DNA from: Candidatus Lindowbacteria bacterium RIFCSPLOWO2_12_FULL_62_27
GTDB taxonomy: Bacteria > Lindowbacteria > 2-12-FULL-62-27
Direction of reading: 5' to 3'
Length of the DNA stretch: 20,000 nucleotides
Assembly (NCBI GenBank): GCA_001784175.1
Contig: MFPR01000006.1
Location: 246,226 to 266,225, forward strand
The position numbers and the translations under genes are program-made. This document shows positions 4,513 to 20,000 of the stretch, one piece after another. Positions within the stretch are counted from its first letter, which is position 1; each line of letters starts with the position of its first letter. The notes beneath the pieces were generated by a model. It was not told the origin of the DNA and ran no database searches. It saw nothing but the letters and a program-made list of their open reading frames with translations.

Positions 4513-5838
4513 ATGAACTATCCCCAGTGGGTCATTGAAGGTATCGGCGGGCCGTGGGTCATTGGCCTGATCGCCATCAGTCACGTCTTTATCTCGCAGT
4601 TCGCCGTCGGCGGCGGGTTTTTCCTGCCCATTACCGAATACATCGCCCGGAAAAACGGCAACATGGAAATGCTCGAGTACGTCCACAAGCACACCCGGTT
4701 CTTCACGATCCTCACCTCCGTCGTCGGCGCCATGTTCGGCGTCGGCATCTGGTTCGCGATCGGGCTGGTCAATCCGGACGCGACCGCGTTTTTGATCCGG
4801 AATTTCGTCCTCGCCTGGACGATCGAGTGGGTCTGGTTTTTCCTCGAAATCGCGTCCCTCGTCGTCTATTACTACGGCTGGAAGACGCTCTCGCCGCGCA
4901 CGCACCAGATCGTCGGCTGGGTCTATCTCTTCACCGCGGTCATGACGCTCTTCACCATCAACGGCATCCTCACCTTCATGCTGACGCCCGGTGACTGGGT
5001 GGAGAACCGCAACTTGTGGTCGGCCTGGTTCAACCCGACCTTCTGGCCGTCCTTCACGATCCGGCTCCTTGTCTGTCTGGGACTGGCCGGCCTCTACGGC
5101 CTCATCACGGCCTCCCGGATGCCCAAAGAGGGCGGCCTTCGCACGCAGATGCTACGGTATTCCGCGATGTGGTTCATTCCGACCTTCGTCGGCATGCTCT
5201 TCGCCATGGGATGGTACTTTTTCGCGCTCCCGGAGGAAGTCCGGACGATGCTGTACAGCGGCGTGTCGGGGTTTGCGAGAGGCAATCTCGCCGTTCTGAC
5301 GCGCGTGTCGATGCTGACGATCCTCTTCACGTGCACCATGGGCATGATGATCTATTTCGGCGCCTACGCCAACCCGGACGAATTCAAGGGCGGCAAGATC
5401 GCGTTCCTCATGCTGTCCGCGCTTTTCGTGACGGGCGCCGGCGAGTGGACGAGGGAAGTCCTGCGCAAGCCCTACGTGATCCGGTACGTCATGTACTCGA
5501 ACGGGGTCCTCGCGGCGAACGCGAAGACGCTGGAGGATTCGGAGCAGACATTCCTTGACAACATCAAGTGGCGTCGCACGGGCGAGAGCGACGGCGAAGC
5601 GATGTTCCGCGCGCAGTGCCGGAGCTGCCACACGATGGACGGCTACCGCCCGCTCCGGGAGTTTCTGGCGGGCCGGGACGAAAACTCCATCAACAGCCTC
5701 TTGAAAATCATGCGCCCGGGCGACAAGAACCCCTACCAGAACATCATGCCGCCGGTGATGGGCACGGACACCGAACTGGCGTCGCTGGCGCACTATCTGG
5801 CCGAGGAAGCCGCGAAGGCAGACGCGCCGCATCACTAA
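4513..5838 (+). CDS. Cytochrome bd oxidase subunit I-like membrane protein with C-terminal c-type heme domain
   Basis: Multiple TM helices. CydA-like segments ISHVFISQFAVG, WTIEWVWFFLE, NGILTFMLTPG, FNPTF, GEWTREVLRKPYVI. CRSCH heme-binding motif and distal MPP. Confidence 0.85.
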   Translation: MNYPQWVIEGIGGPWVIGLIAISHVFISQFAVGGGFFLPITEYIARKNGNMEMLEYVHKHTRFFTILTSVVGAMFGVGIWFAIGLVNPDATAFLIRNFVLAWTIEWVWFFLEIASLVVYYYGWKTLSPRTHQIVGWVYLFTAVMTLFTINGILTFMLTPGDWVENRNLWSAWFNPTFWPSFTIRLLVCLGLAGLYGLITASRMPKEGGLRTQMLRYSAMWFIPTFVGMLFAMGWYFFALPEEVRTMLYSGVSGFARGNLAVLTRVSMLTILFTCTMGMMIYFGAYANPDEFKGGKIAFLMLSALFVTGAGEWTREVLRKPYVIRYVMYSNGVLAANAKTLEDSEQTFLDNIKWRRTGESDGEAMFRAQCRSCHTMDGYRPLREFLAGRDENSINSLLKIMRPGDKNPYQNIMPPVMGTDTELASLAHYLAEEAAKADAPHH

Positions 5839-5847
5839 AGATTGAGA

Positions 5848-6126
5848 TCAGTATTCGATGAATTCTTTGGGGTAGCGGGAGAGGTCGAGTCGTTCTTCTT
5901 GGGGAATGGGGACGATTCCCCAGTTTTGCATTTCAATGGCGCCAAAGAGGACATCGATCGTCCGGCCGGTTTCGTCCGTTCCAAGTTCATCCACGACGAA
6001 TGCCTGCAGCGTGACGGGTTTGCCCGAAAGTTGCCCAAAGAAGTGACAGGTTTCGGTGCATGTGCGATGTTTTCCGCCAAGGCCGACTCGAAAGGCCGTT
6101 GGCAGGTGGACATGCGCGGGATTTTC
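5848..6126 (-). pseudogene. 5'-truncated retropepsin-like aspartyl protease (C-terminal part only)
   Basis: A frame not in the ORF track reads HVHLPTAFRVGLGGKHRTCTETCHFFGQLSGKPVTLQAFVVDELGTDETGRTIDVLFGAIEMQNWGIVPIPQEERLDLSRYPKEFIEY*. VLFGAIEMQNWGI parallels MLIGAKTMQAWDI of 10089-10487. There is no upstream start codon and no D[ST]G; an in-frame stop lies at 6127-6129. Confidence 0.7.
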
Positions 6127-6136
6127 TCAATTATTC

Positions 6137-6165
6137 TTGACTTTTACCCCCTTGGCGGGTACATT
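6137..6165 (+). promoter_or_regulatory. sigma70-type promoter
   Basis: TTGACT-17 nt-TACATT. Confidence 0.7.
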
Positions 6166-6333
6166 CAGTAATTATACATCACTCGGGCAGCGGCAGGTCC
6201 GGTGTTACGCAGGGACTTATGCCTATAGTACATAATGAAGGAGCCGCCGGTACACGATGCCGCCCGATCTGGCCCGCCGTCTGAAATTCATCCAAACAGC
6301 CGGAAGAGAGAGACTACGCAAAGCCATCCAGAG

Positions 6334-6349
6334 TGTGATCCAGATCACA
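6334..6349. promoter_or_regulatory. CRP/FNR-family binding box
   Basis: TGTGA-TCCAGA-TCACA matches the CRP consensus TGTGA-N6-TCACA. Confidence 0.7.
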
Positions 6350-6636
6350 ACTATATATATACAGTATTTGTATAGCGGCCTCTTGGACCCCGTTCCTCCC
6401 ATGCGGGGAAAAACAAAACGGCCCCGATTTCTCGGAGCCGTTTGTGTCAACCTGTGGGAAGGTCCGATCGAACCATCCGAACCGTCCAATGGCTTGACCA
6501 AACTATATGGCAGAAATACTCGGATGTCAAGTGAACGTGGATCCGGAGGGAATCGAACCCTCGGCCGACAGGTTGACAACCATTGGACGGCGACCCGCCC
6601 GGCCCCACGCCCCAAACATAGCATAAAATCGCGACG

Positions 6637-6661
6637 GAATAACTTAACAACTTACGGTCTG
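6637..6661 (+). repeat. Junction motif type A, copy 1
   Basis: GAATAACTTAACAACTTACGGTCTG, identical at 9488-9512 and 9874-9898. Confidence 0.95.
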
Positions 6662-6776
6662 GCGCCATCGAACAGGCGCCATCGAACACGGGGAAGTTCT
6701 GGGTGTATCCCGGTTCGGGTGACACCATCTTCATCAATAGATATGATGAAAAACACGAGCGAGGAAGGTGAGTGAA

Positions 6777-7007
6777 ATGAAATTTGATCGGATTACGGTC
6801 AATCCCAAGCAGATGGGTGGGGCGCCGTGCATTCGGGGGATTCGTATCCCGGTCGCCTCGGTTGTGGGGATGGTGGCGGACGGAATGAAAGAGGAAGAGA
6901 TTTTGAAGGCGTATCCCGATCTCGAATTGGAGGACATTCGAGAGGCGCTTCAGTATGCGGCCGAGGCCGTGCGGGAACGTGAAATCCCGCTGATCGCCGA
7001 ACGGTGA
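6777..7007 (+). CDS. DUF433 family antitoxin
   Basis: [22 protein letters not shown]…[23 protein letters not shown] signature; RBS GAGGAAGG. Confidence 0.92.
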
Positions 7008-7393
7008 AATTTCTGGTGGACAACGCACTCTCGCCGGCTCTTTCGGCCATCTTGCGGTCGGCGGGTCACGATGCCGTGCATGTGCGGGACTACGGCATGC
7101 AGGCTTCGGACGATGATGACATTTTTCGGCGAGCGGCGGTTGAGGAGCGAATACTGATTTCAGCGGATACCGATTTCGGGACGATCCTGGCGAAGCGGCA
7201 GGAGGTCAAGCCTTCGGTCATTCTCTTCCGACGACTGTCCCCACGCCGCCCGGACGCTCAAACCGCTTTTTTGATTGCCCGGTTGCCCGATGTGGCCGAA
7301 TCCTTGCAACAGGGAAGTATCGTTGTCTTGGAAGAAACGCGAATCCGGATCCGCCCCCTGCCCATCGGCGGACCGGAGCGGAGGAACGATTAA
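7004..7393 (+). CDS. DUF5615 family PIN-like toxin (VapC45-like)
   Basis: [10 protein letters not shown]…GHDAVHVRD…ASDDDIF…[14 protein letters not shown] overlap with the DUF433 gene. Confidence 0.92.
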
Positions 7394-7421
7394 ACCATGA
7401 TGAAAATCAATCCGTCGGGTC

Positions 7422-7736
7422 TACAATGTTGATAATTCGACGATCGAGAGCGACAGCGCAAGTTCAAACGGCGCTGATGGTATCCGACTGAACACGAATT
7501 CTTCCGACAACGCGCTGGGCGGCAATACGGTCCATTCGAATGGATTTTGGGGTATTTCCGTGCGGAGCGCTTCGAATGGAAATGTGATAACAACCAACAC
7601 CCCAAAGTCCAACACGCGGGGTGGAATCGAGATTATCGATGCCGATTCGAACGCGGTAGTTCAGAATGAAGCGGCCAACAACGACACCGGGGTCTGGATT
7701 TATGGAACAGCTTCCGGCAATACCGTCTCAAAAAAC
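7422..7736 (+). pseudogene. Internal fragment of a parallel beta-helix (NosD/PbH1) surface-protein gene
   Basis: Reads YNVDNSTIESDSASSNGADGIRLNTNSSDNALGG…NDTGVWIYGTASGNTVSKN. The first ~50 nt are nearly identical to 18693-18744 (YNVDNSTIENDSASSNG). No in-frame start (TGA at 7401-7403). Confidence 0.85.
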
Positions 7737-7742
7737 ACACCA

Positions 7743-8147
7743 CTAAAACTCGGAGGCTTTCATGATGCGGTATGGCAGCGGCTTGGATAGAGCGAGGAAA
7801 TCGCGGTTTTCGGAGATGAGAAAATCGGCGTTCACCCATTCCGCGTACGCCCCGATCTGGGCGTCGGCGGGCTTGAGGCCGCGGACCAGATACGACGCGA
7901 ACAATGCCTTGGGGACATTGTCGTCATCGTCGATACGGCAAGCCATGTCCAGCCAAAAGCGGTGGCAGAGCTTGAACGCCGTCCGTTTGAGATTCCGCCG
8001 GGTTTCGTCGGCAATCGATCGTGATACAGACAGCGAGTTTTTTTCGGCTTTCTCGATCAAGCGGCCGATCAGCCGCTCACAGGCGGGCTTCCGTTCCGCG
8101 CCGAAGGCGTATATGTACTCGTTGCTATCGAGAACGATGCGGGGCAA
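7743..8147 (-). CDS. PIN-domain toxin (VapC-like)
   Basis: TTG start at 8147 with GAGGAG RBS; RIVLDSN…E…ADAQI…ADFLISENRDF acidic PIN motifs. Confidence 0.85.
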   Translation of the reverse strand: MPRIVLDSNEYIYAFGAERKPACERLIGRLIEKAEKNSLSVSRSIADETRRNLKRTAFKLCHRFWLDMACRIDDDDNVPKALFASYLVRGLKPADAQIGAYAEWVNADFLISENRDFLALSKPLPYRIMKASEF

Positions 8148-8340
8148 AGCGCTCCTCAAAAAGCTCGTATCGAGTTTTTTTAATGCGGGCAAGGATCTGG
8201 GCTGCGGTGAGACCATCGAACAACGTTCCGTGCCGGCGTTTGTAGTCCAGAGCCGCTTCAAACGCCCGGCGAGCCGCCACCGGGTCTGGCTTCCCTCCGT
8301 TTCGTCTATGGAGCCTATCCCTCATCGTCCTTTGTTTCAT
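8125..8340 (-). CDS. Putative antitoxin of the PIN toxin
   Basis: 71-aa basic ORF directly upstream of, and overlapping, the PIN gene. TTGACA-17-GACAGT lies 6 nt before the ATG (leaderless-like). Confidence 0.65.
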   Translation of the reverse strand: MKQRTMRDRLHRRNGGKPDPVAARRAFEAALDYKRRHGTLFDGLTAAQILARIKKTRYELFEERFAPHRSR

Positions 8341-8422
8341 GTCGATACTGTCCTAAATCCCGTCGGGCATGTCAAGCGCGGGGACTTGGAGACGTGGGGA
8401 CGTAGAGACTGGGAAAATTTTT

Positions 8423-8843
8423 CCTTGACTTTCGCTCATCCTGCGGATATGTTCAAGGGGTTGGCTCGGGGTGGCAAGTCCTGCAGGATCAGGACTCATG
8501 AATAGGTTCCATGCGCAGGAAACTGCCCCGGTTGATGACGATACGTCCGTTGCGCGACTCCCGAATCTGGCCTATGTCGGTACACCCTTCGTACGTAATT
8601 CCGTCCGCAGTGTGATCTGGATCACAAAGTATATTTGTATATATACAGGGGGTATTCTGTCCAAACTTAAAGACTTATTGCGGAGAGCGGAAATAGTTGA
8701 CACCTCGTTGAGGAAACAACAACAACATCAACTACGAAAAGACGCAAAATTTCGCGAAAACGCGAAAAACCTCTCTATGAAATTTTTTCGAGATCATTCG
8801 CCGCTTCAAAACTTAAATAACTTAATGCCTGACCCTGTTCTCG
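8423..8843 (+). repeat. Full copy of the non-coding leader element (copy B)
   Basis: Near-identical to 11009-11415. Contains TTGACT-17-TATGTT (8425-8453), hairpin AGTCCTG/CAGGACT (8477-8496), a CRP box and junction motif B (8816-8835). Confidence 0.95.
8611..8626. promoter_or_regulatory. CRP/FNR-family binding box
   Basis: TGTGA-TCTGGA-TCACA. Confidence 0.7.
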
Positions 8844-8887
8844 CTGATGTTGTCCCGCCTCATCACTCGAATCGGGGAACTCCGCAA

Positions 8888-9116
8888 ATGATCCGCCGCC
8901 CTCTCTCTGTTCTTTTGTTTTGCCTTGTCCTGTTTTCTTCTCTAATCCCTATTCCCTATTCCCCATTCCCTGCCCTTCCCCTAATCCCTAATCCCTATTC
9001 CCTAATCCCTGCCCTTGCCGCCCCCAACACCTGGTCCACCCTCGCCGCCGCCCCGGCCGCCGTGGCTGATGGCGGCGCGTTGGTGTATCCCGGTTCGGGT
9101 GACACGATTTATGCTT
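8888..9116 (+). pseudogene. 5' remnant of a secreted Kelch-like beta-propeller protein gene
   Basis: MIRRPLSVLLFCLVLFSS…ALA signal peptide, then APNTWSTLAAAPAAVADGGALVYPGSGDTIYA (about one Kelch-like blade), after which the similarity stops. Confidence 0.7.
8942..9016 (+). repeat. Heptamer tandem repeats in two 39-bp higher-order units
   Basis: Four CYAWTCC heptamers plus CTGCCCTT, occurring twice (8942-8977 and 8981-9016). Confidence 0.9.
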
Positions 9117-9145
9117 CTGGAGGCTCGAATGGCCGTGGCGGCCTA

Positions 9146-9200
9146 TGTGATCAAGATCACAGAGATATTTCCGGCATGAACGGGTACTCCTTGATACAAT
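9146..9200 (+). promoter_or_regulatory. CRP-type box plus extended -10 upstream of hicB
   Basis: TGTGA-TCAAGA-TCACA (9146-9161); TG-A-TACAAT (9192-9200). Confidence 0.6.
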
Positions 9201-9222
9201 ACGGGTTGGGGGTGAAGAATTT

Positions 9223-9408
9223 ATGAACGAATATAAAGTTGCGTTTGTAAAAAGCGGAAAATGGTATGCGGCCTTTGTGCCAGACCTGCCGGGCGCTCAC
9301 TCCCAGGGCAGGACTCTGGCGGAAGCCCGCCGGAACATCCGGGAGGCGATTGCGCTGGTGCTCGAATCCAATCACAAGCGATTCCGCTTCAATTCCCCGC
9401 CATCGTGA
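9223..9408 (+). CDS. hicB: HicB family antitoxin (C-terminus probably altered by deletion)
   Basis: KWYAAFVPDLPGAHSQGRTLAEARRNIREAIALVLE signature. Confidence 0.88.
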   Translation: MNEYKVAFVKSGKWYAAFVPDLPGAHSQGRTLAEARRNIREAIALVLESNHKRFRFNSPPS

Positions 9409-9475
9409 AATCAACACGTTCACGGCTCGCGGCATCTGTAAAGACCTGGGTGTCGAACCTCCGAGCGGCAAATGA
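9392..9475 (+). pseudogene. hicA: C-terminal remnant of a HicA mRNA interferase
   Basis: IPRHREINTFTARGICKDLGVEPP is a typical HicA C-terminus; the N-terminal part carrying the catalytic G-x-H motif is missing. Confidence 0.75.
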
Positions 9476-9487
9476 AACCTGCGGCGT

Positions 9488-9512
9488 GAATAACTTAACA
9501 ACTTACGGTCTG
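9488..9512 (+). repeat. Junction motif type A, copy 2
   Basis: GAATAACTTAACAACTTACGGTCTG followed by ACCCC. Confidence 0.95.
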
Positions 9513-9543
9513 ACCCCGTTGACCAGTTGCCGGTTACGGCTGG

Positions 9544-9639
9544 TTAACTCTGCTTGTGGCGGGGACGTTCGATGAAGACTTCCATGAACACGATGGCCAG
9601 AATCGGCAATATCAGACTGGCCCATTCGGCAATACTCAC
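9544..9639 (-). CDS. 31-aa single-TM peptide (MSIAEWASLILPILAIVFMEVFIERPRHKQS)
   Basis: GTG start overlaps the upstream stop (GTGA) and is preceded by AAGGAGG; hydrophobic core and basic tail; shorter than any ORF in the track. Confidence 0.65.
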   Translation of the reverse strand: MSIAEWASLILPILAIVFMEVFIERPRHKQS

Positions 9640-9821
9640 AGTCGATCCTCCTTCCATACGTAATATACCAGACAACAGATGCCGGCCGCCAACGCGCCGA
9701 CCGGAAACGACGGATGCAGGTCCTGCCGAAAAATCGTCGCGGCCAGCCCGCCGATCATCAGCGCACGGCCCATTTCAAAGATCACCTTCTCAAGTCTCGA
9801 CTCAGGCCTTCTCTCCATCAC
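9636..9821 (-). CDS. Small two-TM hypothetical membrane protein
   Basis: 61 aa with two hydrophobic segments; its own promoter TTGCAC-17-TATGAT (9856-9828) ends 6 nt before the start codon. Confidence 0.65.
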   Translation of the reverse strand: MMERRPESRLEKVIFEMGRALMIGGLAATIFRQDLHPSFPVGALAAGICCLVYYVWKEDRL

Positions 9822-9873
9822 ATCCGGATCATACCGTCAAACCTACTCTTGTGCAAGCTCGTGGGAAGGATTT

Positions 9874-9898
9874 GAATAACTTAACAACTTACGGTCTG
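9874..9898 (+). repeat. Junction motif type A, copy 3
   Basis: GAATAACTTAACAACTTACGGTCTG followed by AGCC. Confidence 0.95.
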
Positions 9899-9909
9899 AG
9901 CCTTCTCTC

Positions 9910-10012
9910 AAAAACCTCTATATGAAATTTTTTCGCGATCATTCGCCGCTTCAAAACTTAAATAACTTAATGCCTGACCCTGTTCTCGGTTCGGGCGACA
10001 CGATTTATGCTT
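9910..10012 (+). repeat. 3' partial leader copy (copy C) fused to a Kelch GSGDTIYA fragment
   Basis: 9910-9988 matches 8765-8843 (2 mismatches), including motif B at 9961-9980; 9987-10012 matches 9091-9116 (1 mismatch). Confidence 0.9.
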
Positions 10013-10020
10013 TCGGAACC

Positions 10021-10049
10021 TTGAAACATCCTCCGGTTGCGGGTATATT
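10021..10049 (+). promoter_or_regulatory. sigma70-type promoter of the protease gene
   Basis: TTGAAA-17 nt-TATATT. Confidence 0.65.
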
Positions 10050-10088
10050 CGAAGATGGGCGCAGGGGTAAAAAGGGGAGTCGAGCGGC

Positions 10089-10487
10089 GTGAGCAAACCC
10101 ATTCGGGACGTGGACATTGAAACGGCCAACGGTAAAAAAACATGCGTTTCGGCTGTCCTCGACAGCGGGTCGTTCTATACGATCATTCGTCAGGATTGTT
10201 TGCCGCGCGGGGCCGTGGTCGAAACGTTGAAGGTCAAACAAAAATTTGGAACGGCAAAACGGCGCGGCGGCAAACTTGTTGTGACCGCGGTTGTGTATTT
10301 AAAAATGCGCGTTGAAGGCCGCTGGATCAGTGACGAGGCGAAGGTCGCCCCCGACTTGGGGTCGGAGATGTTGATCGGCGCCAAAACCATGCAAGCCTGG
10401 GACATCACCATCAAAAACAAAAATGGCCGCACAACCATCCATGTCGGGCATGACATGAACGACCCCGACATCCAGACGGTGCTGTGA
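10089..10487 (+). CDS. Retropepsin-like (clan AA) aspartyl protease
   Basis: AVLDSGSFYTII catalytic motif and MLIGAKTMQAW psi-loop; RBS AAGGGGAG; GTG start. Confidence 0.85.
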   Translation: MSKPIRDVDIETANGKKTCVSAVLDSGSFYTIIRQDCLPRGAVVETLKVKQKFGTAKRRGGKLVVTAVVYLKMRVEGRWISDEAKVAPDLGSEMLIGAKTMQAWDITIKNKNGRTTIHVGHDMNDPDIQTVL

Positions 10488-10533
10488 TGGCAAAGTCAAT
10501 ACGTCAAGGAATGGCACCGTCAGCGGAAAACTT

Positions 10534-10560
10534 AATAACTAAATGCCTGACACTGTTCTC
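10534..10560 (+). repeat. Junction motif type B
   Basis: AATAACTAAATGCCTGACAC-TGTTCTC, compared with AATAACTTAATGCCTGACCC-TGTTCTC at 8816 and 9961. Confidence 0.85.
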
Positions 10561-10568
10561 CTGGTTTT

Positions 10569-10818
10569 GGAAACTGCCCCGGTTGATGACGATACGTCCG
10601 TTGCGCGACTCCCGAATCGATCCTATGTCGGTACACCCTTCGTGCGGATTTCCGTTCGCAGTGTGATCTGGATCACAATATATATGTGTAGTTATATAGG
10701 AGATATTCTGTCTAAACTTATAGACTTACTACGGAGAGCGGAAATAGTTGACATCTCGTTGAGAAACCCCATCAACTACGAAAAGACGCAAATTTTCGCG
10801 AAAACGCGCAAAAAACTC
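10569..10818 (+). repeat. Internal partial leader copy (copy D) with CRP box at 10662-10677
   Basis: Aligns with 8518-~8770; contains TGTGA-TCTGGA-TCACA. Confidence 0.9.
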
Positions 10819-10866
10819 AAAAACTCAATACCTGGTACTGTCTTCTCCGCAGCCGGAAATAACTTC

Positions 10867-10886
10867 AATAACTTAATGCTTGACAC
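10867..10886 (+). repeat. Junction motif type B
   Basis: AATAACTTAATGCTTGACAC, preceded by AATAACTTC. Confidence 0.85.
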
Positions 10887-10896
10887 CGTTCGTCTG

Positions 10897-10917
10897 CCTC
10901 CCCCGCAAGGGGGGAGG
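10897..10917. repeat. REP-like hairpin
   Basis: CCTCCCCC-GCAAG-GGGGGAGG, the same style as the palindromes at 81-186; no U-tract. Confidence 0.5.
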
Positions 10918-11008
10918 AACAACTGCGGCCATGCGAAATTGAACAAAATCTACCACGCCAGTAGCGGTCTGCCGTCTATATGCGGAATCGCTGGACCGGC
11001 CAATTCTC

Positions 11009-11415
11009 CCTTGACTTTCGCTCTTCCTGCGGATATATTCAAGGGGTTGGGTCGGGGTGGCAAGTCCTGCAGGATCAGGACTCATGAATAGGTTCCATGC
11101 GCAGGAAACTGCCCCGGTTGATGACGATACGTCTGTTGTGCGACTCCCGAATCTGGCCTATGTCTGTACACCCTTCGTACGTAATTCCGGCCGCCGTGTG
11201 ATCTGGGTCACACAACATATTTGTATATATACAGGGGGTATTCTGTCCAAACTTAAAGACTTATTGCGGAGGGCGGAAATAGTTGACACCTCGTCCAGGA
11301 AACAACATCAACTACGAAAAGACGCAAATTTTCGCGAAAACGCGCAAAAACTCTCTATGAAATCTTTCCGCGATCATTCGCCGATTCAAAACTTTAATAA
11401 CTTAATGCCTGACCC
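11009..11415 (+). repeat. Full leader element (copy E) upstream of the giant gene
   Basis: TTGACT-17-TATATT (11011-11039), hairpin, CRP box TGTGA-TCTGGG-TCACA (11197-11212), motif B at 11396-11415. Confidence 0.95.
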
Positions 11416-14400
11416 CAGTCTTCTACCCCAGTCTTCCCTGTTTTTCGCCGATTCGCCGTTTCTCCGTCTCGCCGTTTCGATCTTTATAGCCCTCTTCCCA
11501 CTTTTCAATCCCGAAGCACACGCCGCACCCAACGACACCACCGCCGACGCCGTGTGGGGCCAGCCGAATTTTGGCGATTCGACCGTAAATAACGGCGGCA
11601 TCTCGGCAAACAGCCTGCTATATCCGCGCGGCGGCGCATTTGATGCCCAAGGGCGTCTGTACGGCGCCGATCAGGGTAACAGCCGCATCCTGATCTACAA
11701 CGGTCCGGCATCGGGTGACACGACGGCCGACACCGTCTTGGGCCAGCCGGGATTCACAACGAACACCCAAAATAACGGCGGCGTCTCGGCAAACAGCCTG
11801 GCCAATCCAGATGGCGTCGCATTCGATGCCCAAGGGCGTCTATACGTCGGCGATAGGATCAACAACCGCGTCCTGATCTACGACGATCCGGCATCGGGTG
11901 ACACGACGGCCGACACCGTCTTGGGCCAGCCGGGATTTGCAACGAACACATTCAATATCGGCGGCATATCGGCAAACACCCTGTACGAACCGTATAATGT
12001 CGAAGTCGATGCCCAAGGGCGTCTCTACGTCGCCGATTTGAGTAACCATCGCGTCCTGATCTACGACAATCCGGCGTCGGGCGACACGACGGCCGACACC
12101 GTATTGGGCCAGCCGGGATTCGCAACGAACACCGCCAATAACGGCGGCATATCGCCAAACAGCCTGAACAGTCCGTATGGCGTCGAAGTCGATGCCCAAG
12201 GGCGTCTGTACGGCGCCGATCAGGGTAACAGCCGCATCCTGATCTACAACGGTCCGGCATCGGGTGACACGACGGCCGACACCGTATTGGGCCAGCCGGG
12301 ATTCACAACGAACACATTCGATATCGGCGGCATATCGGCAAACGGCATGTACAATCCGACTGGCGTCGAAGTCGATGCCCAAGGGCGTCTCTACGTCGCC
12401 GATTACTCCAACCATCGCATCCTGCGCTTCGACACAGCCCCGCCGCCCCCTCCCTACGCCGGCCCGAAATGGTACGTGAATGACACGTCGACCAGCGGCG
12501 ACTCGTACACGTACGCGGTCGGCAGTGACGCCAACGAGGGGAGCGCATCATTGCCGTTCCGCACGATCATCCGCGCGATCAACGCCGCCTCATCCGGCGA
12601 CACCATCTACATCGACGCCGGACTCTATGACTCGTATGTCGTCATCAGCGCCACCGAGACGGCGGGCGTCAACATCACCAAGGACTCGATCGCGCTCATC
12701 GGCAAGGACTCGGCGTCCACCATCATCGATCCCCCGGGGGCGAAGACGCTGACGGGACTCTACGGCATCTACGCCGACACGCAGACGGGACTCACGATCA
12801 AAAACCTCGGCGTGACGGGGGCGTATGACGGGATTCGCTTCGATAACGTCGATCGGTCCACAGTTTCCGGTGACAGTTGCAGTTCGAACGGCGAATACGG
12901 CGTCTATCTGTTCAACGGATCGGAAACGAACACCCTCAGCAACAACATCGCCAATTCCAATTCGTCCATCGGGTTTCTCGTTTCCGGATCCAACCACAAC
13001 ACCGTCAACAACAACATCGCCAATTCCAACTCCAATGCCGGAATCAATTTCTCGTCCAGTTCCTACGACACCGCAAGCAACAACACCGCCAACCTGAACG
13101 GATTTGCCGGGATCGATCTGAACGGCGGGTCCTATTACACCGTCACCGGCAACACTTCGGACACCAATTCTTCCCACGGCATCTATCTCGAAGGCGGGAC
13201 CAATAACAACACCGTTTCCAATAACACCGCCCGCGGCAACTCGACCACCGGCATCTACCTCAACGCGGCCGATACCAACACCCTTTCCGGCAACACCGCC
13301 GGCGTCAACGGCGACGGGATCAAGCTCTTGAACAGTCAGGCCAACACGCTGAGCTCCAATACGGCCAACTCGGACTCGTGGAACGGCATTGTTCTTTCGG
13401 GATCGAACCGCAATACCCTTGAAACCAACACCTGTCACTCCAACCTCGGCCCCGGCATTCTGCTCGTGGATACGTCGAAGTTCAATACGCTCCGCAACAA
13501 CACGGCCGAAACGAACACCGGCGCCGGAATCAAAGTCCTGAACAGCTCATCCGACACCCTGAGCGGCAACACGAGCCGGTCGAACACCCTGTACGGCATT
13601 CACTTGGACGGGGCGGCGAATAACACCCTGACCAACAACACGGCCAATTTGAACGTGTCCATCGGGATTTATCTTTCCGGCGCTTCGGACACGAACACGG
13701 TGGACAGCAACGCGGCCAATTCGTGCGGCGACGGAATCAAAGTCTTGAACAGCCACGGCAACACGCTGAAGTCGAACACGGCCCAATCGGACACCTACAA
13801 CGGCATCGTCATCTCGGCGTCGAACGACAACACCGTGGAGAGCAACACGTGCAATCTGAACGCTCAGATCGGAATTCTGTTGGCGGACACCTCGAAACGC
13901 AATACCGTGCGGAACAATTCGGCCGACACCAACACGCAGGCGGGGATCAAGCTGACCGGCGCTTCGTCGGACGACACCGTCAGCGGCAACACGTGCCGGT
14001 CTAATCTCCAGCAGGGGATTCTTCTCGACATGGCCGACACCCACACGATTTCATCCAACACGGCCAATTCCAACGGGGACGGCATTAAACTCCTGAACAG
14101 CCACGGCAACACCGTCAGTTCCAACACGGCCCAATCGGATACCAACGGCATCGTGCTGTCGGGCGCGAACAACAATACGCTGGAGACCAACACCTGTTTC
14201 TCCAACCTGCAAATCGGGATTTTGCTGGCGGACACGTCGAAGTTCAACACGGTGCGGAACAACACAACCGAAACGAACACGTATGACGGCATCAAAGTCT
14301 CGGGCGCATCAAGCGACACGGTGGAGGGGAACACGACGCGGTGGAACACGCAGTACGGCATCTGGCTGGACGACACGTCGACGAACAACGTGGTGAAGAA

Positions 14401-17400
14401 CAACACGGTGACGCTGAACGCGAACATCGGGATTTACCTGTCGGACGGGTCGGACACGAACACGGTGGACAGCAACGCGGCCAATTCCAATTCGGACGGC
14501 ATCAAATTGTCGGACGCTCACGCAAATACGGTGGTGAACAACACGGCCAAATCGGATTCGTACAACGGCATCGCGCTCTCGGGCGCGAACCGAAACACGA
14601 TCGAGACGAACACATGTCAGTCCAATCTGCAGATCGGCATCCTGCTGGCGGACGGGTCGAGATACAACGTCATTTCGAACAACACGACGGACACGAACGC
14701 GCAATACGGGATCAAAGTGCTGGGGAGTTACTACGACACGGTGACGGACAACACGGCGCGCGAAAATCCGGTGCAGGGGATTCTGCTGGACGGGTCGGAG
14801 ACGAACTGGGTCGTGAGCAACACGGCGGTTTCGAACGGGGACGGGATCAAATTGCTGAACAGCCACGGCAATACGGTGCGTTCGAACACGGCGCGGTCGG
14901 ACACGTACAACGGGATTGTGCTCTCGGGCGCGAACGGCAACACGATCGAGACCAACACCTGCAACTCGAATCTGCAGGTTGGGATTCTGCTGGCGGACAC
15001 GTCGCGGTTCAACACGGTGTCGGGCAATGTGTCGGAGACGAACGCGTGGGACGGGATCAAGGTGTTTGGCAGTACGTTCGACACGTTGAGCGGGAACAGG
15101 GCGCGGTGGAACACGAACTACGGCATCTGGCTGGCCGACACGTCGACGAACCACGTGATCAGGAACAACACGGCGGCGCTGAATGCAGGCATCGGCATCT
15201 ACCTCTCGGAAGGCGCGGACACGAACGCGGTGGACAGCAACACGGCGAACTCGAACGGGGACGGGATCAAGGTCCTGCGCAGCCACGGCAATACGCTGAA
15301 GTCGAACACGGCCCAGTCGGACACCTACAACGGCATTGTGTTGTCGGGCGCCAACAACAATGTCTTGGAGACCAACATCTGTTTCTCGAACTTGCAAGTC
15401 GGAATTCTGCTGGCGGACACGTCGAAATACAATGTGGTGAGGAACAACACGACCGACACGAACACGCAATACGGGATTCGGCTGTTGAACAGTTCATACG
15501 ACACGGTGACGGGCAACACGGCGCGGTCCAACCCGCTGGTGGGCATCCATCTGGACGGGTCGGACACGAACGTGGTGAAGAGCAACACGGCCAATTCCAA
15601 CGGCGACGGGATCAAGCTGTTGAACAGCCACGGCAACACCGTCAGTTCCAACACGGCCCAATCGGACACCTACAACGGCATCGTGCTGTCGGGCGCGAAC
15701 AACAATACGCTGGAGACCAACACCTGTTTCTCCAACCTGCAAATCGGGATTTTGCTGGCGGACACGTCCAAGTTCAATACCGTGCGGAATAACACGACCG
15801 AAACGAACACGTATGACGGCATCAAAGTCTCGGGCTCATCAAGCGACACGGTGGAGGGGAACACGACGCGGTGGAACACGCAGTACGGCATCTGGCTGGC
15901 CGACACGTCGACGCTGAATGTGGTGAAGAACAACACGGTGACGCTGAACGCGAACATCGGGATTTACCTGTCGGACGGGTCGGACACGAACACGGTGGAC
16001 AGCAACACGGCCAATTCCAATTCGGACGGTATCAAAGTCCAGCGCAGCCATGGCAACACGCTGAAGTCGAACACGGCCCAATCGGACACCTACAACGGCA
16101 TCATCCTATCTGTCGCGAACAACACCCGTGTGGAAAGCAATACGATCAAATCCAACCTGCAAGTCGGCCTCCAGATCGCGGATATCTCCAATAATAATTT
16201 CTTCCGGAATAACACCGTTTCTTCCAATACCCAAATGGGCGTCAAGCTGTACAGTTCGGACTCGAACACCCTCACACAGAACGATATCAGCGGCAACGAC
16301 ACCGGCGTACGGATCGAAGGGACCTCTGCCGGCAACCTCATTACCAAAAACAACATCACCGGCAACAATGTAAACGGGGTTTATAACCAGGCCGGCCTCG
16401 CCCAGACGCTGACCCGTAACTGGTTCGGTTCCGCCGACTCGGTGACGGTCAAGAACAAGATCAGCGACACGGCGTCGGATTGGGATCCGTGGCGACTCGC
16501 CGCGGTCGACACGGCTGCCGGCGCCGACACGACCGCGCCGAAAGCGCCGGACACGGTGGCGGTGGTGAGCGCGGCGGGCGACTCGTCGGTGGGTTTGGAG
16601 TGGGCGGCGGTGACGGCGCTGGAGGAGTCGAACGGCGGCGCCGTGGGGTTGTCGGGGTATCGGGTGTACCGCAGTCTGACCAAAGACACGTCGTCGTGGA
16701 TCAAAATCGGCCAGACGGGGTCGGGGCAGATCCGGTTTCAGGATACGGATGCCGGGCTCAAGACATACTACTACCGCGTGACTGCGTTCGACGCGGCGGC
16801 GTTTGAGAACGAGTCGTTCTTCTCTGACTCCCAGCCGTCGGGCCAGGCGTGGTTTGGCCGGACCGCGTTTTACGTGAACGACGGCTCCACATCGGGCGAC
16901 AGTTTCACGTATGCGGCGGGTTCGGACACGACGGGCGAAGGCACGTCGGGCAAGCCGTTCGGCTCGCCGGCGAAGGCGATGCAGTACGTGACCGCCGGCG
17001 ACACGATCTGGCTGGACGCCGGCACGTACGGCGGCGACACGTGGGAGATGATTTCGGCGACAGAAACCGGCGCCGTGAATCTGGATACGGACAACTTGAC
17101 GCTGATCGGCAAGGATTCGGGGGCGACGGTGATTGATCCGCCGGGACTGGCGACCGGAATCTTCGGCATCTACGCCGACTCGCAGGCTGGCCTGATGATC
17201 AAAAATCTCGGCGTGACGGGCGCCTATGACGGGATTCATTTCCTGACGGTGACGTCGTCCCGGATCGAGAACGACAGCTCCGGGGCGTGCTTGAATGACG
17301 GTTTCTACTTGGAATCTTCGGACTCTAACACGCTGTCGAACAACATCTCCAATTTGAATTCGGCCAACGGGATCACGCTCTCGTACTGCACCGGCAACAC

Positions 17401-20000
17401 CGTGAGCGGCAACACGGCCAACTCGAACGCGTCGAACGGCATCAACCTGGCCGCTTCCCTGAGCAACACGCTGACCGGCAACACGGCCGACGGCAATTCG
17501 AGCCGGGGCATTATTCTGTCAACCGGATCGACCGGAAACCGCGTGACCGGAAACCGCGTGTTCTCGAACGCCTATGGCGTCAGTCTCGGGATCAACTCGA
17601 CCGGCAATCTCGTCGCGCGAAACGCCGCCAATTCGAATACGACCAACGGCATTTACATCCAGAGCGCGAACAACGTCGTGACGCAAAACGACGTCCGGCT
17701 CAACACCCAGTATCAGATCTATCTCACGTCGGCGGCGACCGGCGCCGTCGTCGAGAAAAACAATATCCAGCCGTCGGGCGGCACCGACAGCGGAGCGTAT
17801 GTTCAGGCGCCGACGACGGGACTCCAGACTTTCACCCGCAACTGGTGGGGATCTCTGGATTCGGTAACAATAAAGAAGAGTGTCGTCCAGACAGCCAACG
17901 CCGATTCGGTCATCTGGCAGCCATTCCGGCTGGCGCAGGTCGACACCGCCGCCGGCGCCGACACGACCGCGCCGAAAGCGCCGGACACGGTGGCCGTGAT
18001 CGGCGCGCCGTCGGACACGTCGATTATCGTCGAGTGGTCGGCGGTGAGCGCGCTGGAAGAGACGAACGGCGGCGCGACGGGGCTGTCGGGGTATCGGGTG
18101 TACCGGAGCGCCGTCAAAGACACGTCGTCCTGGGTGAAAGTGGCGCAGACGGCGTCGGGCGTGATCCGGTGGCAGGACACGGATGCCGGGATCGGGACCC
18201 GGTACTATTACCGCGTGACGGCATTCGACACCGCGACGCCGTTCGAGAACGAGTCGTTCTTCTCGGACAGCCAGCCCTTCGACGCCGCGATGTTTGGCCC
18301 TCAGATCAACTGGTACGTGAACGACGGCTCCACCGCCGGCGACAGTTACACGTATGCGGCGGAACCGACACCGCGTCCGGCAAGGGGTCCGCTTCGGCGC
18401 CGTTCAAGTCTCTCGCCAAAGTCATGCAATTCGTGACCGCCGGCGACACGATCTGGCTGGACGCCGGCACATTCGGCGGCGACACATGGGAGATGATTTC
18501 GGCGACCGAAACCGCCGCCGTGAATCTGGATACGGACAACCTGGCGCTGATCGGCGTGGACTCGGGCGCGACGGTCATCGATCCGGCGGGGGTGAAGACG
18601 CTGGCCAATCTCTACGGCATCTACGCTGACACGCAAGTCGGCCTTGCGATCAAAAACATCGGCGTGACGGGGGCGTACGACGGGATTCATTTCTACAACG
18701 TGGACAATTCGACGATTGAAAACGACAGCGCAAGTTCAAACGGCAACTACGGCATTTACCTTCGCGTCAATTCAGACACCAACACGATGACCACCAACAC
18801 GGCCGGGTCGAATTTCTATGGCATCTATCTGACATCAAGTTCGAACAACAACACGTTGACGAGCAACACGGCCAGTTCGAATACAGATGGCATCTATCTG
18901 TCTTCGAGTTCGAACAACACGTTGACGAGCAACACGGCCAGTTCGAATACGGGCAACGGTATCCGTCTGGCCGTGAGTTCGAACAACAACACGTTGACGA
19001 GCAACACGGCCAGTTCGAATACGGACGGCATCTATCTGGATGCAAGTTCGAACAACACGTTGACGGGCAATACGGCCAGTTCGAATTCGAGCCTCGGCAT
19101 CTATCTGTACTCGAGCTCAAACAACACGGTGACGAGGAACACGGCCAGCTCGAATACGGGCTACGGCATCCGTCTGTATGCGAGTTCGAACAGCACAGTC
19201 CTTCAGAACGAGGTCAGGAACAACACCCAATATCAGTTCTATATCGAAGCGGCTTCCTCCTCCGACACCATCCAGAAAAACAACATCGTGACCTCCGGGA
19301 CGAATCCCGACAGCGGGGTCTACAACGCCTCGACCACCGCAACCAACAAATTCACCTTCACCCGCAACTGGTGGAACTCGACCGATACGGGCCGGATCAA
19401 GCAGATGATCTATCAGGCGTCGAACGGCGATTCCGTGATCTGGCAACCGTTCCGGCTGGGGCAGGTCGACACGGCGTCGGGCGCCGACACGACCGCGCCG
19501 AAAGCGCCGGACACGGTGGCGGTGGTGGGCGCGCCGTCGGACACGTCGATCATCCTCGAGTGGTCGGCGGTGAGCGCGAACGAGGAGACGGTGTCGGGCG
19601 GCGTAGGGCTGTCGGGCTACCGGGTCTACCGGAGCAAGACGAAGGATACGAGTTCCTGGACCCGCGTCGCGCAACGAGCGTCCGGCGTCATCCGGTATCA
19701 GGACACGGACGTGTCGCTGGGTGTGAACTATTACTACCGCGTGACGGCCTTCGACACGGCGGCGCCATTTGAGAACGAGTCATTCTTCTCGGACTCGCAA
19801 CCCTTCGATTCCGCGCAGGCGCAGTCGCGAGTGAACTGGTACGTGAACGATATCTACTCCGGCGACTCGTTCACCTACGTCGGCGGGTCGGACACGTCGG
19901 GTGACGGCACAGCGCAAAAGCCGTTCAAGTCTATCCCGAAGGCGATGTCGCTGGCGACATCGGGCGATACAATCTGGATCGACGCGGGGCTTTACGACTC
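11405..20000 (+). CDS. Giant secreted/surface protein: NHL-like repeats plus repeated [WYVND cap + parallel beta-helix (NosD/PbH1) + FN3] modules; frameshifted at ~18360; runs off the window
   Basis: Signal peptide ending PEAHA; five 61-aa GRLYxAD repeats; GI-x-L/NNT beta-helix repeats; three FN3 domains (LSGYRVYRS…YYYRVTAFD). The frame from 18361 is open to 20000 and continues the module pattern. The start position is uncertain. Confidence 0.88.
11540..12430 (+). repeat. Five intragenic 183-bp tandem repeats (NHL-like)
   Basis: GATGCCCAAGGGCGTCT occurs at 11642, 11825, 12008, 12191 and 12374. Confidence 0.95.
14057..16035 (+). repeat. ~450-bp near-identical intragenic direct repeat (14057-~14506 and 15583-~16035)
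   Basis: Both encode NTANSNGDGIKLLNSHGNTVSSNTAQSDT(Y)NGIV…DSNxANSNSDGIK; the first copy lacks one Tyr codon. Confidence 0.9.
18820..19190 (+). repeat. ~66-69-bp tandem beta-helix coding repeats
   Basis: Recurrent AGTTCGAACAAC(AAC)ACGTTGACGAGCAACACGGCCAGTTCGAATAC. Confidence 0.85.

Follow-up and report, generated by a model that had tools for sequence, protein, structure and literature searches.

The window, by which the whole analysed stretch of 20,000 nt is meant, belongs to a 266-kb contig of Candidatus Lindowbacteria bacterium RIFCSPLOWO2_12_FULL_62_27. The host is a groundwater bacterium. Synteny with three other genera ends directly after a cytochrome gene, and no relative closer than these three genera was found. 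The region upstream of a gene for a giant secreted protein holds nine copies of a short motif, all in a single orientation on the + strand and belonging to three or four subtypes. They are listed below as putative terminal inverted repeats (TIRs), a reading developed in the following paragraphs.

5848..6123, - strand: small conserved ORF
6409..6606, - strand: tRNA-like RNA (6535-6606) and small RNA (about 6409-6495) bearing its own promoter and terminator, touching the inner side of TIR A1
6637..6667, + strand: putative solo TIR of type A (A1), two tandem 8-nt boxes plus outer end (nhmmer E 3.8e-06)
6661..6688, + strand: stutter duplication, 14-nt unit, 0 mismatches, beginning within the final bases of TIR A1
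6768..7393, + strand: toxin-antitoxin-type pair, DUF433 (6768-7007) and DUF5615/PIN-like (7004-7393) (Pfam)
7420..7790, + strand: giant-gene body fragment with beta-helix/NosD repeats (profile match)
7743..8340, - strand: PIN-domain toxin (7743-8150) and 71-aa upstream partner (8125-8340, no Pfam match)
8416..8835, + strand: promoter-leader repeat copy 1, with sigma-70-like -35/-10 and a CRP-like palindrome (8611-8626), ending at TIR B'1
8808..8838, + strand: putative solo TIR of type B' (B'1, ATGCC variant) (repeat family, nhmmer)
8825..9226, + strand: truncated N-terminal fragment of a giant-gene paralog, 133 aa, signal peptide and one repeat
9223..9475, + strand: degraded hicB/hicA remnant
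9488..9519, + strand: putative solo TIR of type A (A2) (repeat family, nhmmer)
9503..9821, - strand: two small hydrophobic ORFs (40 and 61 aa) without family
9874..9899, + strand: putative solo TIR of type A (A3) (repeat family, nhmmer)
9953..9983, + strand: putative solo TIR of type B' (B'2), terminating a 79-nt leader-repeat copy (9910-9988) (repeat comparison, nhmmer)
10089..10487, + strand: aspartyl-protease-like (retropepsin-like) ORF, 132 aa
10527..10556, + strand: putative solo TIR of type B' (B'3), fused to an internal stretch of the leader repeat (repeat comparison, nhmmer)
10569..10818, + strand: promoter-leader repeat, partial copy 2 (87%)
10812..10841, + strand: putative solo TIR of type D (AACTC boxes) (nhmmer)
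10860..10889, + strand: putative solo TIR of type B proper (ATGCT variant) (nhmmer)
11002..11415, + strand: promoter-leader repeat copy 3, immediately upstream of the intact giant gene
11388..11417, + strand: putative TIR of type B' (B'5) (nhmmer)
11405..18436, + strand: giant secreted protein, 2343 aa, NHL and many beta-helix/NosD repeats (Beta_helix E 1.3e-198, NHL 4e-23), opened by the ATG at 11405 in TIR B'5
11412..11436, + strand: stutter duplication, 12-nt unit, 1-nt spacer, beginning in the last bases of TIR B'5, within the first codons of the giant gene

The copies delimit eight segments of heterogeneous content. Three of them are gene-free (53, 18 and about 255 nt); in others, there are two toxin-antitoxin pairs, fragmented giant-gene paralogs or promoter-leader copies. 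Among the genes named in a preliminary description of this DNA, the DUF433, DUF5615/PIN-like and PIN domains were recovered, the last of them at E 1.3e-4 and 23.0 bits against a cut-off of 23.6. The claimed hicBA operon, by contrast, is reduced to a truncated 61-aa HicB piece and, for HicA, a faint trace in a different frame (E 0.0079, under the cut-off). As for the two proposed retropepsins, the ORF at 10089-10487 stays below the Pfam cut-off (E 1.5e-4), and that at 5848-6123 has no Pfam match. Given these heterogeneous segments, the gene fragments, and the lack of any repeated unit of cargo plus motif (just leader plus motif and RNA module plus motif recur), the cassette-like array or gene-capture system originally proposed is not supported.

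The positions reported for the motif agree with the repeat-family search, namely 25 identical nt at 6637, 9488 and 9874 (type A), and 8816, 9961, 10534, 10867 and 11396 (type B), all on the + strand; the agreement of both types at 16/20 positions is correct on reading the sequence. TIR B'2 lies 87 nt downstream of TIR A3 on the same strand. With regard to two degenerate candidates, that at 10819-10838 is real and represents the ninth copy (type D, nhmmer E 0.012), whereas that at 10493-10518 is doubtful, as it did not reach E <= 1 in nhmmer. A degenerate 20-mer spanning types A and B matches six times with one mismatch at most, against 0.01 expected, and none of 200 shuffles reaches six. Genome-wide, nhmmer with types A-D returned 44 matches at E <= 1, nine of which fall within 4.8 kb of window sequence, all on the + strand (binomial p 1.5e-18). 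No palindrome was found in the motif.

Three of the type B copies form the 3' termini of a repeat of ~420 nt that had gone unnoticed in the first reading, present at 8416-8835 and 11002-11415 (92.6% identity) and partially at 10569-10818 and 9910-9988. One frame of this leader is stop-free in all three copies. The fragment at 8825-9226 is opened by the ATG of TIR B'1 (8825), is cut near GSGDTIYA and matches repeats on contig C24 and at C6:152-155k, while positions 7420-7472 recur at 18692-18744 of the window and on contigs C34 and C24. A plain segmental duplication, in which the motif would be nothing but the 3' part of a duplicated promoter-leader without a dedicated enzyme, accounts for the location of four of the five type B copies (8816, 9961, 10534 and 11396) in or beside one repeat of 87-97% identity. 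However, the three type A copies and the type D copy have nothing in common beyond the 25-30-nt motif, the motif is also found at 20 other contig sites and with 21/21 identity in other genera, and inverted motif pairs flank Y1 transposase genes. As a full explanation, segmental duplication is counted strongly against, and we regard it as highly improbable.

Two new details concern the outer end of the motif. First, similarity between copies, which had been described as lost within ~10 nt downstream, extends 56-421 nt inward but, in 40 of the 45 informative pairs, breaks off no more than 6 nt beyond the outer end, as exemplified in the window by 8416-8835 versus 11002-11415 and by 6404-6661 versus C6:153624-153878. 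Second, a short tandem duplication or stutter (counted when its unit has 8 nt or more) follows 37 of 90 TIR copies (41%), in comparison with 2.4% of 5000 random sites (p 6e-36). These comprise 17 of the 44 type A-D copies and 20 of 46 copies from five other TIR families, and stutters are present in the relatives too.

The motif has a constant architecture, its inner side being made up of two tandem boxes of 8-9 nt and its outer end being a conserved stretch of 10-12 nt, NNGNYTGRCNCC, whose reverse complement is close to the published GGGGWSAS. Inverted pairs surround a Y1 transposase gene of their own on contigs C43 (type A), C24 (type B proper) and C22 (type C), and, in total, eight of the nine Y1 genes of the genome show this common layout with differing boxes, the box sequence varying with each paralog. 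All five close homologs examined in the relatives are likewise flanked (types A, A, C, D and one further type), including the type D gene of genome G003, and the TIRs of the three other genera are built alike. The type A 21-mer occurs in 4/4 genomes of the family and in 0/37 outside it. Thus, the earlier comparison with RAYT/IS200-like HUH (Y1) loci was well founded, and an association with a recombinase, whose lack had been named as a point against the first reading, does exist. Neither hairpins nor any dependence of solo TIR orientation on local GC skew were observed, so that a strand bias of the IS608 type is not seen; many TIR copies are head-to-head dimers without a gene. Solved Y1 transposases require a hairpin.

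The type A gene on C43 encodes 314 aa with a Y1_Tnp domain (E 7.4e-11, 42.7 bits, cut-off 23) and a Bac_DnaA_C match that remains below the Pfam cut-off (E 8.9e-06, 26.1 bits versus 31.5). The genome contains eight PF01797 matches and nine tblastn matches of this kind, and the HUH histidines (H60, H62) and the YRWSS motif (137-141) are unchanged in 8/8 sequences. Although phmmer found no solved relative, the best Foldseek match of the AlphaFold model (pLDDT 67.7) is the E. coli RAYT structure 4er8 (E 1.9e-05, TM 0.70), followed by the IS200, ISDra2 and IS608 transposases. Across two genera, the proteins are 79% (type C) and 58% (type A) identical, compared to 43-52% between types, suggesting that gene and repeat have been paired in the long term.

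These features are those of the little-studied TIRtrons and their TIR-associated tyrosine transposases, or TIRYTs (Di Nocera, De Gregorio and Rocco 2013, PMC3733652), which correspond to TnpA-Y1 subclass 2.1, with a Bac_DnaA_C-like or HTH tail (Quentin et al. 2018, PMC6006769). As far as the accessible text of these papers goes, the likeness includes a RAYT-like Y1/HUH gene (~300 aa) whose product carries an HTH tail and which is flanked by inverted repeats without hairpins, an outer end in agreement or near agreement with GGGGWSAS, the presence in one genome of several paralogs that each have a TIR of their own, and the scattering of TIRs as single, dimeric and grouped copies. On the other hand, the window has solo ends only, nine co-oriented and gene-less copies of three or four subtypes; moreover, the accessible portions of both papers do not describe the two-tandem-box layout, the stutters or the enrichment at giant-gene 5' ends reported below, and the terms "duplication" and "target site" do not occur in that of PMC3733652. 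We consider it probable, on the grounds of sequence, that the nine copies are solo TIRs of TIRtrons with a predicted enzymatic activity. The motif is then a known kind of element, and a new gene-capture system is not supported. Since no TIRYT gene was found in the window, any enzyme would act in trans, in line with the first description of a polar end tied to an enzyme encoded elsewhere, Y1_Tnp genes with inverted motif copies being located on other contigs. No exactly cognate TIRYT gene for subtype B' (four window copies) or for type D was found in this assembly, which is 94% complete.

REP/REPIN systems with their RAYTs resemble TIRtrons in the enzyme core and in pairing a gene that is mostly single-copy and vertically kept with a short dispersed repeat of its own, both diverging jointly; however, REPs form palindromic hairpins tagged with GTAG or CGTC, unlike the TIRs with their two direct boxes, and TIRYTs carry an extra HTH tail. 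The IS200/IS605 elements (IS608, ISDra2) share the Y1 HUH fold, and action at a defined distance from a recognition element would be expected in both, but their ends are subterminal hairpins on one strand instead of inverted repeats, and they are multicopy and near-identical, whereas TIRYT paralogs are 43-58% identical. Integron and pdif arrays also hold small genes, including toxin-antitoxin ones, among repeated same-strand sites. Their exclusion in the first reading is upheld, as none of the 14 PF00589 matches of the genome lies on the contig and the site is not palindromic; furthermore, the window segments are not single promoterless genes, gene orientation is mixed, and many segments are fragments or empty.

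The giant gene provides two further new details. The ATG of TIR B'5 is its only canonical in-frame start (ATG, GTG or TTG) ahead of the signal peptide, and co-oriented TIRs are overrepresented at giant-gene 5' ends, being found at 7 of 70 open frames of at least 1500 codons but at 24 of 4037 frames of 300-1499 codons (~17-fold; odds ratio 18.6, p 5.9e-07), a count in which many giant frames begin at contig ends and some may be antisense artefacts. Type B ATGs are in frame with three giant proteins (in the window, on C22 and on C24), TIR C lies ahead of one and the same coiled-coil gene in two genera, and in genome G002 a giant gene follows TIR A at a distance of ~45 nt. These data would fit a domesticated control element, in which TIRs now mainly act as portable 5' control modules of downstream genes, giant surface-protein genes being the main targets, by means of an A/U-rich leader without Shine-Dalgarno, a start codon or a putative site for the TIRYT HTH as regulator. 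Nevertheless, types A, C and D have no ATG, 9 of the 12 ATG-bearing type B copies open just short frames of 7-182 aa, identical sequences flank TIRYT genes that point away from them, and many copies are the gene-less dimers mentioned above. As the main role of the TIRs this is rather unlikely, although it is compatible with their origin as TIRtron ends.

A gene capture by one-ended or rolling-circle mobilisation, similar to that of IS91/ISCR, has also been considered. TIRYT would start at a TIR end and take variable lengths of inner DNA along, stacking genes between same-strand ends. The shared orientation of the nine ends is consistent with this, as are the repeated blocks that are precise at the TIR outer end and ragged at the inner boundary (the 420-nt leader, the 261-nt RNA module and a 224-nt block common to C4 and C7). 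In addition, three of six other DUF433 paralogs lie less than 1 kb from an A-D TIR, against about 2% expected, and the homolog of the 5848-6123 ORF in another genus (G002) adjoins a type A TIR. However, no protein-coding cargo is duplicated along with its TIR, none of seven PIN, antitoxin-like, HicB, membrane and protease-like paralogs is near a TIR, gene fragments and empty spacers make up inter-end segments, and the window has no captured coding gene that has demonstrably moved. The enzyme is also a HUH protein, but of the single-tyrosine Y1, RAYT type and not a Rep of the IS91/Helitron type, and no oriIS/terIS pair is present. Contigs from four other runs have an arrangement identical to that of the window, showing neither the circles nor the alternative joints anticipated at the motif, nor any change of length at its two stutter sites, contigs being blind to rare variants. 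Ordinary recombination at short TIR homology could yield the same boundaries. One-ended capture is judged improbable. Overall, the first interpretation is partly supported.

HUH enzymes hold the 5' end on their tyrosine and leave a 3'-OH free, and, to our knowledge, two-ended cut-and-paste is unable to move solo ends. For the TIRtron ends, we propose that the tandem boxes are read by the HTH tail of TIRYT, and that the HUH/Tyr domain would introduce a single-strand nick 5-7 nt inside the outer end, at about the junction of ...CTG and GCNCC, a position deduced solely from the start points of the duplications. If the free 3'-OH primed limited synthesis and the strand was then rejoined, the final TIR bases and 6-11 nt of flank would be copied, giving rise to the stutter at 41% of copies. 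The same end would serve as a breakpoint at which blocks of inner sequence plus TIR, for example the 420-nt promoter-leader and the RNA module, become joined to new DNA downstream. Through this joining of blocks, the window would represent a zone prone to rearrangement ahead of a giant surface-protein gene, in place of the ordered cassette array, which is rejected, and would have accumulated TIR ends together with copies of the leader, toxin-antitoxin genes and pieces of broken giant genes.

The window, which takes up the final 20 kb (C6:246226-266225) of the 266-kb contig C6, belongs to a 4.39-Mb draft genome of 61% G+C (G000), and it carries a set of motif copies whose positions and orientation had been correctly given in the preliminary description, all of them on the + strand:

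Motif copies in the window
6637, + strand: type A
8816, + strand: type B
9488, + strand: type A
9874, + strand: type A
9961, + strand: type B
10534, + strand: type B
10867, + strand: type B
11396, + strand: type B

The three type A copies are identical over 25 nt, and a degenerate 20-mer covering types A and B finds six matches with at most one mismatch (0.01 expected; none of 200 shuffles reaches six). Two degenerate candidates had also been proposed: that at 10819-10838 is a true fourth subtype, D (10812-10841), while that at 10493-10518 falls below the threshold of the profile search. Genome-wide there are 21 copies of type A and 11 of type B, and two further subtypes exist: C has a GGGGCTGGCACC end, and D is marked by AACTC boxes. 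With 32 copies as input, an nhmmer profile matches 44 genome sites at E <= 1; a 4.8-kb part of the window contains nine of these (p 1.5e-18). The layout is that of two direct boxes, and the repeat search of the window found no inverted repeat inside or across the motif, only two distant inverted pairs. At three copies, the type B motif ends a promoter-leader repeat of ~420 nt that had previously gone unnoticed; 8416-8835 and 11002-11415 are 92.6% identical, and partial copies lie at 10569-10818 and 9910-9988.

Comparison with the published description of TIRtrons identifies the window motif as the terminal inverted repeat (TIR) of a TIRtron, an element in which the gene for a Y1/HUH tyrosine transposase with a C-terminal helix-turn-helix (HTH)—a TIRYT—is flanked by TIRs. 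According to the accessible part of Di Nocera et al. 2013 (PMC3733652), these names were given to RAYT-like genes with non-hairpin inverted repeats at their flanks; many TIRs share the motif GGGGWSAS, a genome has several paralogs, every one of them with a TIR of its own, and TIR copies are also scattered singly, as dimers or in groups. Most TIRYTs are assigned to subclass 2.1, with a Bac_DnaA_C or HTH tail, in the accessible part of Quentin et al. 2018 (PMC6006769). In reverse complement, the outer end reads GGGGTCAG in type B' (the ATGCC variant of B) and the C41 family, an exact fit to GGGGWSAS, GGGGCCAG in most type A copies, with a C at the W position, and GGTGCCAG in type C. This kind of motif is already known, and a new gene-capture system is not supported.

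The key result came from divergent motif pairs ~970 nt apart, one of which, on C43, encloses a gene for a 314-aa protein whose Y1_Tnp domain passes the cut-off (E 7.4e-11) and whose Bac_DnaA_C-like HTH tail falls short of its own (E 8.9e-06, 26.1 bits vs. 31.5). The genome yields eight PF01797 matches and nine tblastn hits for such Y1 genes. The three closest paralogs each lie between inverted copies of a single subtype, with a match of 21-26 nt between the two TIRs, and all five close homologs examined in the relatives (G001-G003, from three other genera of the family) also have flanking TIRs:

TIRYT genes and the TIRs that flank them
C43, gene 154945-155889: type A TIRs at 154902 (-) and 155876 (+)
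C24, gene 57242-56346: type B TIRs at 57318 (+) and 56286 (-)
C22, gene 15311-14403: type C TIRs at 15343 (+) and 14382 (-)
G003: type A flanks two genes
G003: type D flanks one gene
G002: type C flanks one gene
G002, contig C73: gene flanked by a further box type

The likeness to RAYT/IS200-like loci, pointed out in the preliminary description, was right, as the same motif subtypes flank Y1_Tnp genes as inverted TIRs. One nhmmer profile matches both the nine window copies and the TIRs of the C43, C24 and C22 genes, which lie outside the window; the cognate genes are in trans. Of the six Y1 genes that are more distant, five have inverted ends on the same plan: an outer end of the GGGG/GGTG type, then two tandem boxes of 8-9 nt with a sequence that differs per gene. 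In total, 8/9 Y1 genes of G000 are flanked by inverted TIRs that are not REP hairpins, the exception being a partial gene on C36 with none, and the genome contains at least nine TIRtron families and ~90 TIR copies. The assembly is 94% complete, and a B' or D TIRYT gene may be missing from it.

All eight aligned sequences conserve the HUH histidines (HxH) and a YRWSS motif without change. The AlphaFold model of the enzyme is of moderate quality (mean pLDDT 67.7; core 72-89), and its C-terminal helical domain (residues 230-300, pLDDT 86-93) is modeled with confidence and yielded no separate fold match. In Foldseek, the model comes closest to 4er8, the REP-associated tyrosine transposase of E. 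coli (E 1.9e-05; TM 0.70 on the target), with the IS200, ISDra2 and IS608 transposases next; phmmer against solved structures found no relative.

TIRtrons share with this system the Y1 HUH gene and the non-hairpin flanking TIRs, and the window copies belong to one sequence family with the TIRs that flank the C43, C24 and C22 genes. REP/RAYT systems (REPINs) differ in that REPs are palindromic hairpins with a GTAG or CGTC tag, whereas the window motif is not palindromic. IS200/IS605 elements are multicopy and near-identical, with subterminal hairpins and no inverted repeats, unlike the TIRYT paralogs described here, which are 43-58% identical and have inverted repeats as ends. Integrons require an IntI-type tyrosine recombinase and palindromic attC sites, and neither was found here; the 14 PF00589 matches in the genome include none on C6, a contig that ends at window base 20000.

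Several features go beyond the published description, as far as its accessible part extends: co-divergence, an end duplication, an outer-end breakpoint, head-to-head dimers and the association with giant-gene 5' ends. Gene and repeat diverge in parallel: between TIRYTs of two genera, identity is 79% for type C and 58% for type A, against 43-52% between types. The type A 21-mer is kept at 21/21 positions across genera and is present in all four family genomes, but in none of 37 sampled outside. With a looser pattern, several MAGs labelled Elusimicrobia also yield related TIRs, one of which lies beside a TIRYT-like gene. Of the 42 stretches from the genome-collection pattern scan, single matches in unrelated phyla were not counted, being about as many as chance would give on a rough estimate (~35).

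The end duplication, or stutter, is a tandem repeat with a unit of 8 nt or more that starts in or just after the outer end; the unit comprises the final 5-7 bases of the TIR and 6-11 nt of flank, and it is repeated 2-5 times. It was found at 17/44 copies of types A-D and at 20/46 copies of five other TIR families, compared to 2.4% of 5000 random positions (p 6e-36), and is also seen at TIRs in relatives. Two cases lie in the window:

Stutters in the window
6661-6688: stutter after TIR copy A1
11412-11436: stutter after TIR copy B'5

The outer end is also a breakpoint: among 45 informative pairs of TIR copies, similarity extends 56-421 nt inward, and in 40 of them it stops no more than 6 nt outward. 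Head-to-head dimers of 60-100 nt, which are mini-elements with both ends, make up most of families F (14 copies), G (9) and I (19), whereas types A-D are mostly solo. The orientation of solo TIRs (n = 42) bears no relation to local GC skew (12/17 against 6/7).

In the most likely mechanism, the HTH tail would read the tandem boxes, which would carry the specificity, while the conserved HUH core would cut the conserved outer end. The free 3'-OH left by HUH enzymes could then prime a few bases before rejoining, giving rise to the stutter, and TIR ends would favor joins that relocate blocks made up of inner DNA plus a TIR. If TIRs are cut and their blocks moved in this way, the region upstream of the giant gene, which encodes a secreted 2343-aa protein, would most likely be a pile-up of TIR-end events.

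This region (5848-11415) had been taken for a cassette-like array of a candidate gene-capture system, but the nine copies delimit eight heterogeneous segments, which are not cassettes. Among their contents are a DUF433/DUF5615 pair, a PIN pair that is oriented the other way, a truncated HicB accompanied by a faint trace of HicA, two tiny ORFs, an aspartyl-protease-like ORF, leader-repeat copies, spacers of 18 and 53 nt, and four pieces of giant-gene paralogs (6702-6730, 7420-7790, 8825-9226 and 9984-10017) that break near the same GSGDTIYA site. The second of the proposed retropepsins (5848-6123) resembles neither the ORF at 10089-10487 nor any Pfam family. At a paralogous locus (C6:152800-153520), a small gene whose product we take to be four-helix-bundle-like is, by eye, inserted at this GSGDTIYA(F) site in the N-terminal region of a giant gene, between arrays of CAATGAACCAATG-like repeats and with a duplicated junction.

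Gene capture is a minority reading and an improbable one. Cargo paralogs give mixed evidence: 3/6 other DUF433 genes have an A-D TIR no more than 1 kb away vs. ~2% expected, and 0/7 paralogs of the remaining cargo genes do. Logan contigs of four other runs (X3, X5, X6 and X7) covering 5000-12500 display the same arrangement and no excision or empty-site joint, at a depth of 5-7 with rare variants dropped, and the loose contig ends checked match other copies in the genome. Synteny with the three other genera is lost directly after the cytochrome gene, and the stretches analyzed downstream of it in these relatives contain no TIR. The metagenome scan for relatives returned the window's own contig, a G002 contig and a 2.8-kb piece, and nothing else. 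From sequence alone, solo transposase ends that have piled up can be mistaken for a cassette array.

In all three copies of the leader repeat (8440-8824, 10569-10866 and 11026-11404), one frame is free of stops and the other two hold 4-8, and this stays so despite a frame-shifting indel between the copies. The substitutions do not clearly suggest a coding role, as third-position changes are not enriched (7 synonymous vs. 10 non-synonymous; 2 vs. 8), and the frame has no Pfam match.

Other small elements were observed in the window. The 81-nt stretch 10913-10993, at both ends of which the reads of other runs branch, recurs at C41:111961-112041 with 94% identity and is probably another small mobile repeat. 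A C-run/G-run hairpin lies just downstream of TIR copies at C14:~3200-3260, C41:~48440-48500 and window 10895-10915, and on C14 and C41 the same ~25-nt sequence comes after it. The ~75-nt near-perfect hairpin at 94-172 weakly matches several unrelated microRNA models on both strands, and is a palindromic repeat rather than a microRNA. The ORFs 638-2347 and 2269-3432 are missing at this position in G001 and G003, where the homolog of 185-619 adjoins that of 3431-4508; this difference is an insertion in G000 or a loss in the relatives.

A further observation concerns an RNA module at 6409-6606 (-), where a tRNA-like RNA of 70 nt is followed by a sigma-70-like promoter and a small RNA of ~85 nt with an intrinsic terminator. 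A paralog lies at C6:153624-153850 and another copy in G003 (C107:13158-13406); all three adjoin a type A TIR, on differing sides. The tRNA-like RNA, which shows a T-arm as well as G3:U70 in its acceptor stem, scores 29.7 bits against the Rfam tmRNA cut-off of 47. By eye, the small RNA is complementary to its anticodon-arm region in two segments, whose order is swapped, and both covary in all three copies; the two RNAs may constitute an undescribed pair, and computed duplex energies did not clearly separate cognate from non-cognate pairs. ARAGORN found neither tRNA nor tmRNA in the window, and a tmRNA integration site was ruled out for the tmRNA-like stretch 6535-6606, the genome's tmRNA being at C6:181175-181534.

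The TIRs are strongly linked to the starts of giant surface-protein genes. A co-oriented TIR is found at the 5' end of 7/70 frames of at least 1500 codons, compared to 24/4037 frames of 300-1499 codons (odds ratio 18.6, p 5.9e-07). The ATG of type B is in frame with three giant proteins, and in the window's giant gene (11405-18436, with NHL and beta-helix repeats), no other canonical start comes ahead of the signal peptide; the paralog at C6:154137 lacks a type B TIR and has a start of its own. The type B ATG had first suggested that the whole family acts as a start codon and leader, a reading that was dropped because types A, C and D have no ATG and TIRs flank TIRYT genes. That TIRs have been co-opted as 5' control modules of giant genes is possible, if unlikely.

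Near-perfect 16-nt palindromes of the CRP/FNR type (TGTGA-N6-TCACA) also occur in this region, at 6334, 8611, 9146, 10662 and 11197, these five in 5 kb being part of 18 genome-wide. An A/T-rich stretch of the TATATAC type comes after several of them, and others lie near giant genes (e.g., C30:68883, C30:69110 and C6:152042), which suggests one regulator for these loci.

The TIRs, as ends of TIRtrons, come in G000 as at least nine gene-repeat pairs on one plan of variable tandem boxes and a conserved end, with ~90 repeat copies and a reproducible scar that points to the probable enzyme cut site. The accessible parts of PMC3733652 and PMC6006769 contain no biochemical test of TIRYT binding or cutting, and the G000 data offer concrete substrates and predictions for a first such study. 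A bolder proposal, which we regard as rather improbable, is that TIR ends, more than leftovers, would be the working sites of an HUH system for rearranging giant surface-protein genes at their 5' ends. The TIRYTs would nick at the TIR, joins would exchange promoter-leader-start modules (in type B even with the start codon), neighboring genes would be gained or lost through the same joins, and the stutter would be the scar of each nick. If this were true, the cell could switch or vary the expression of its giant adhesin-like proteins through TIR joins.
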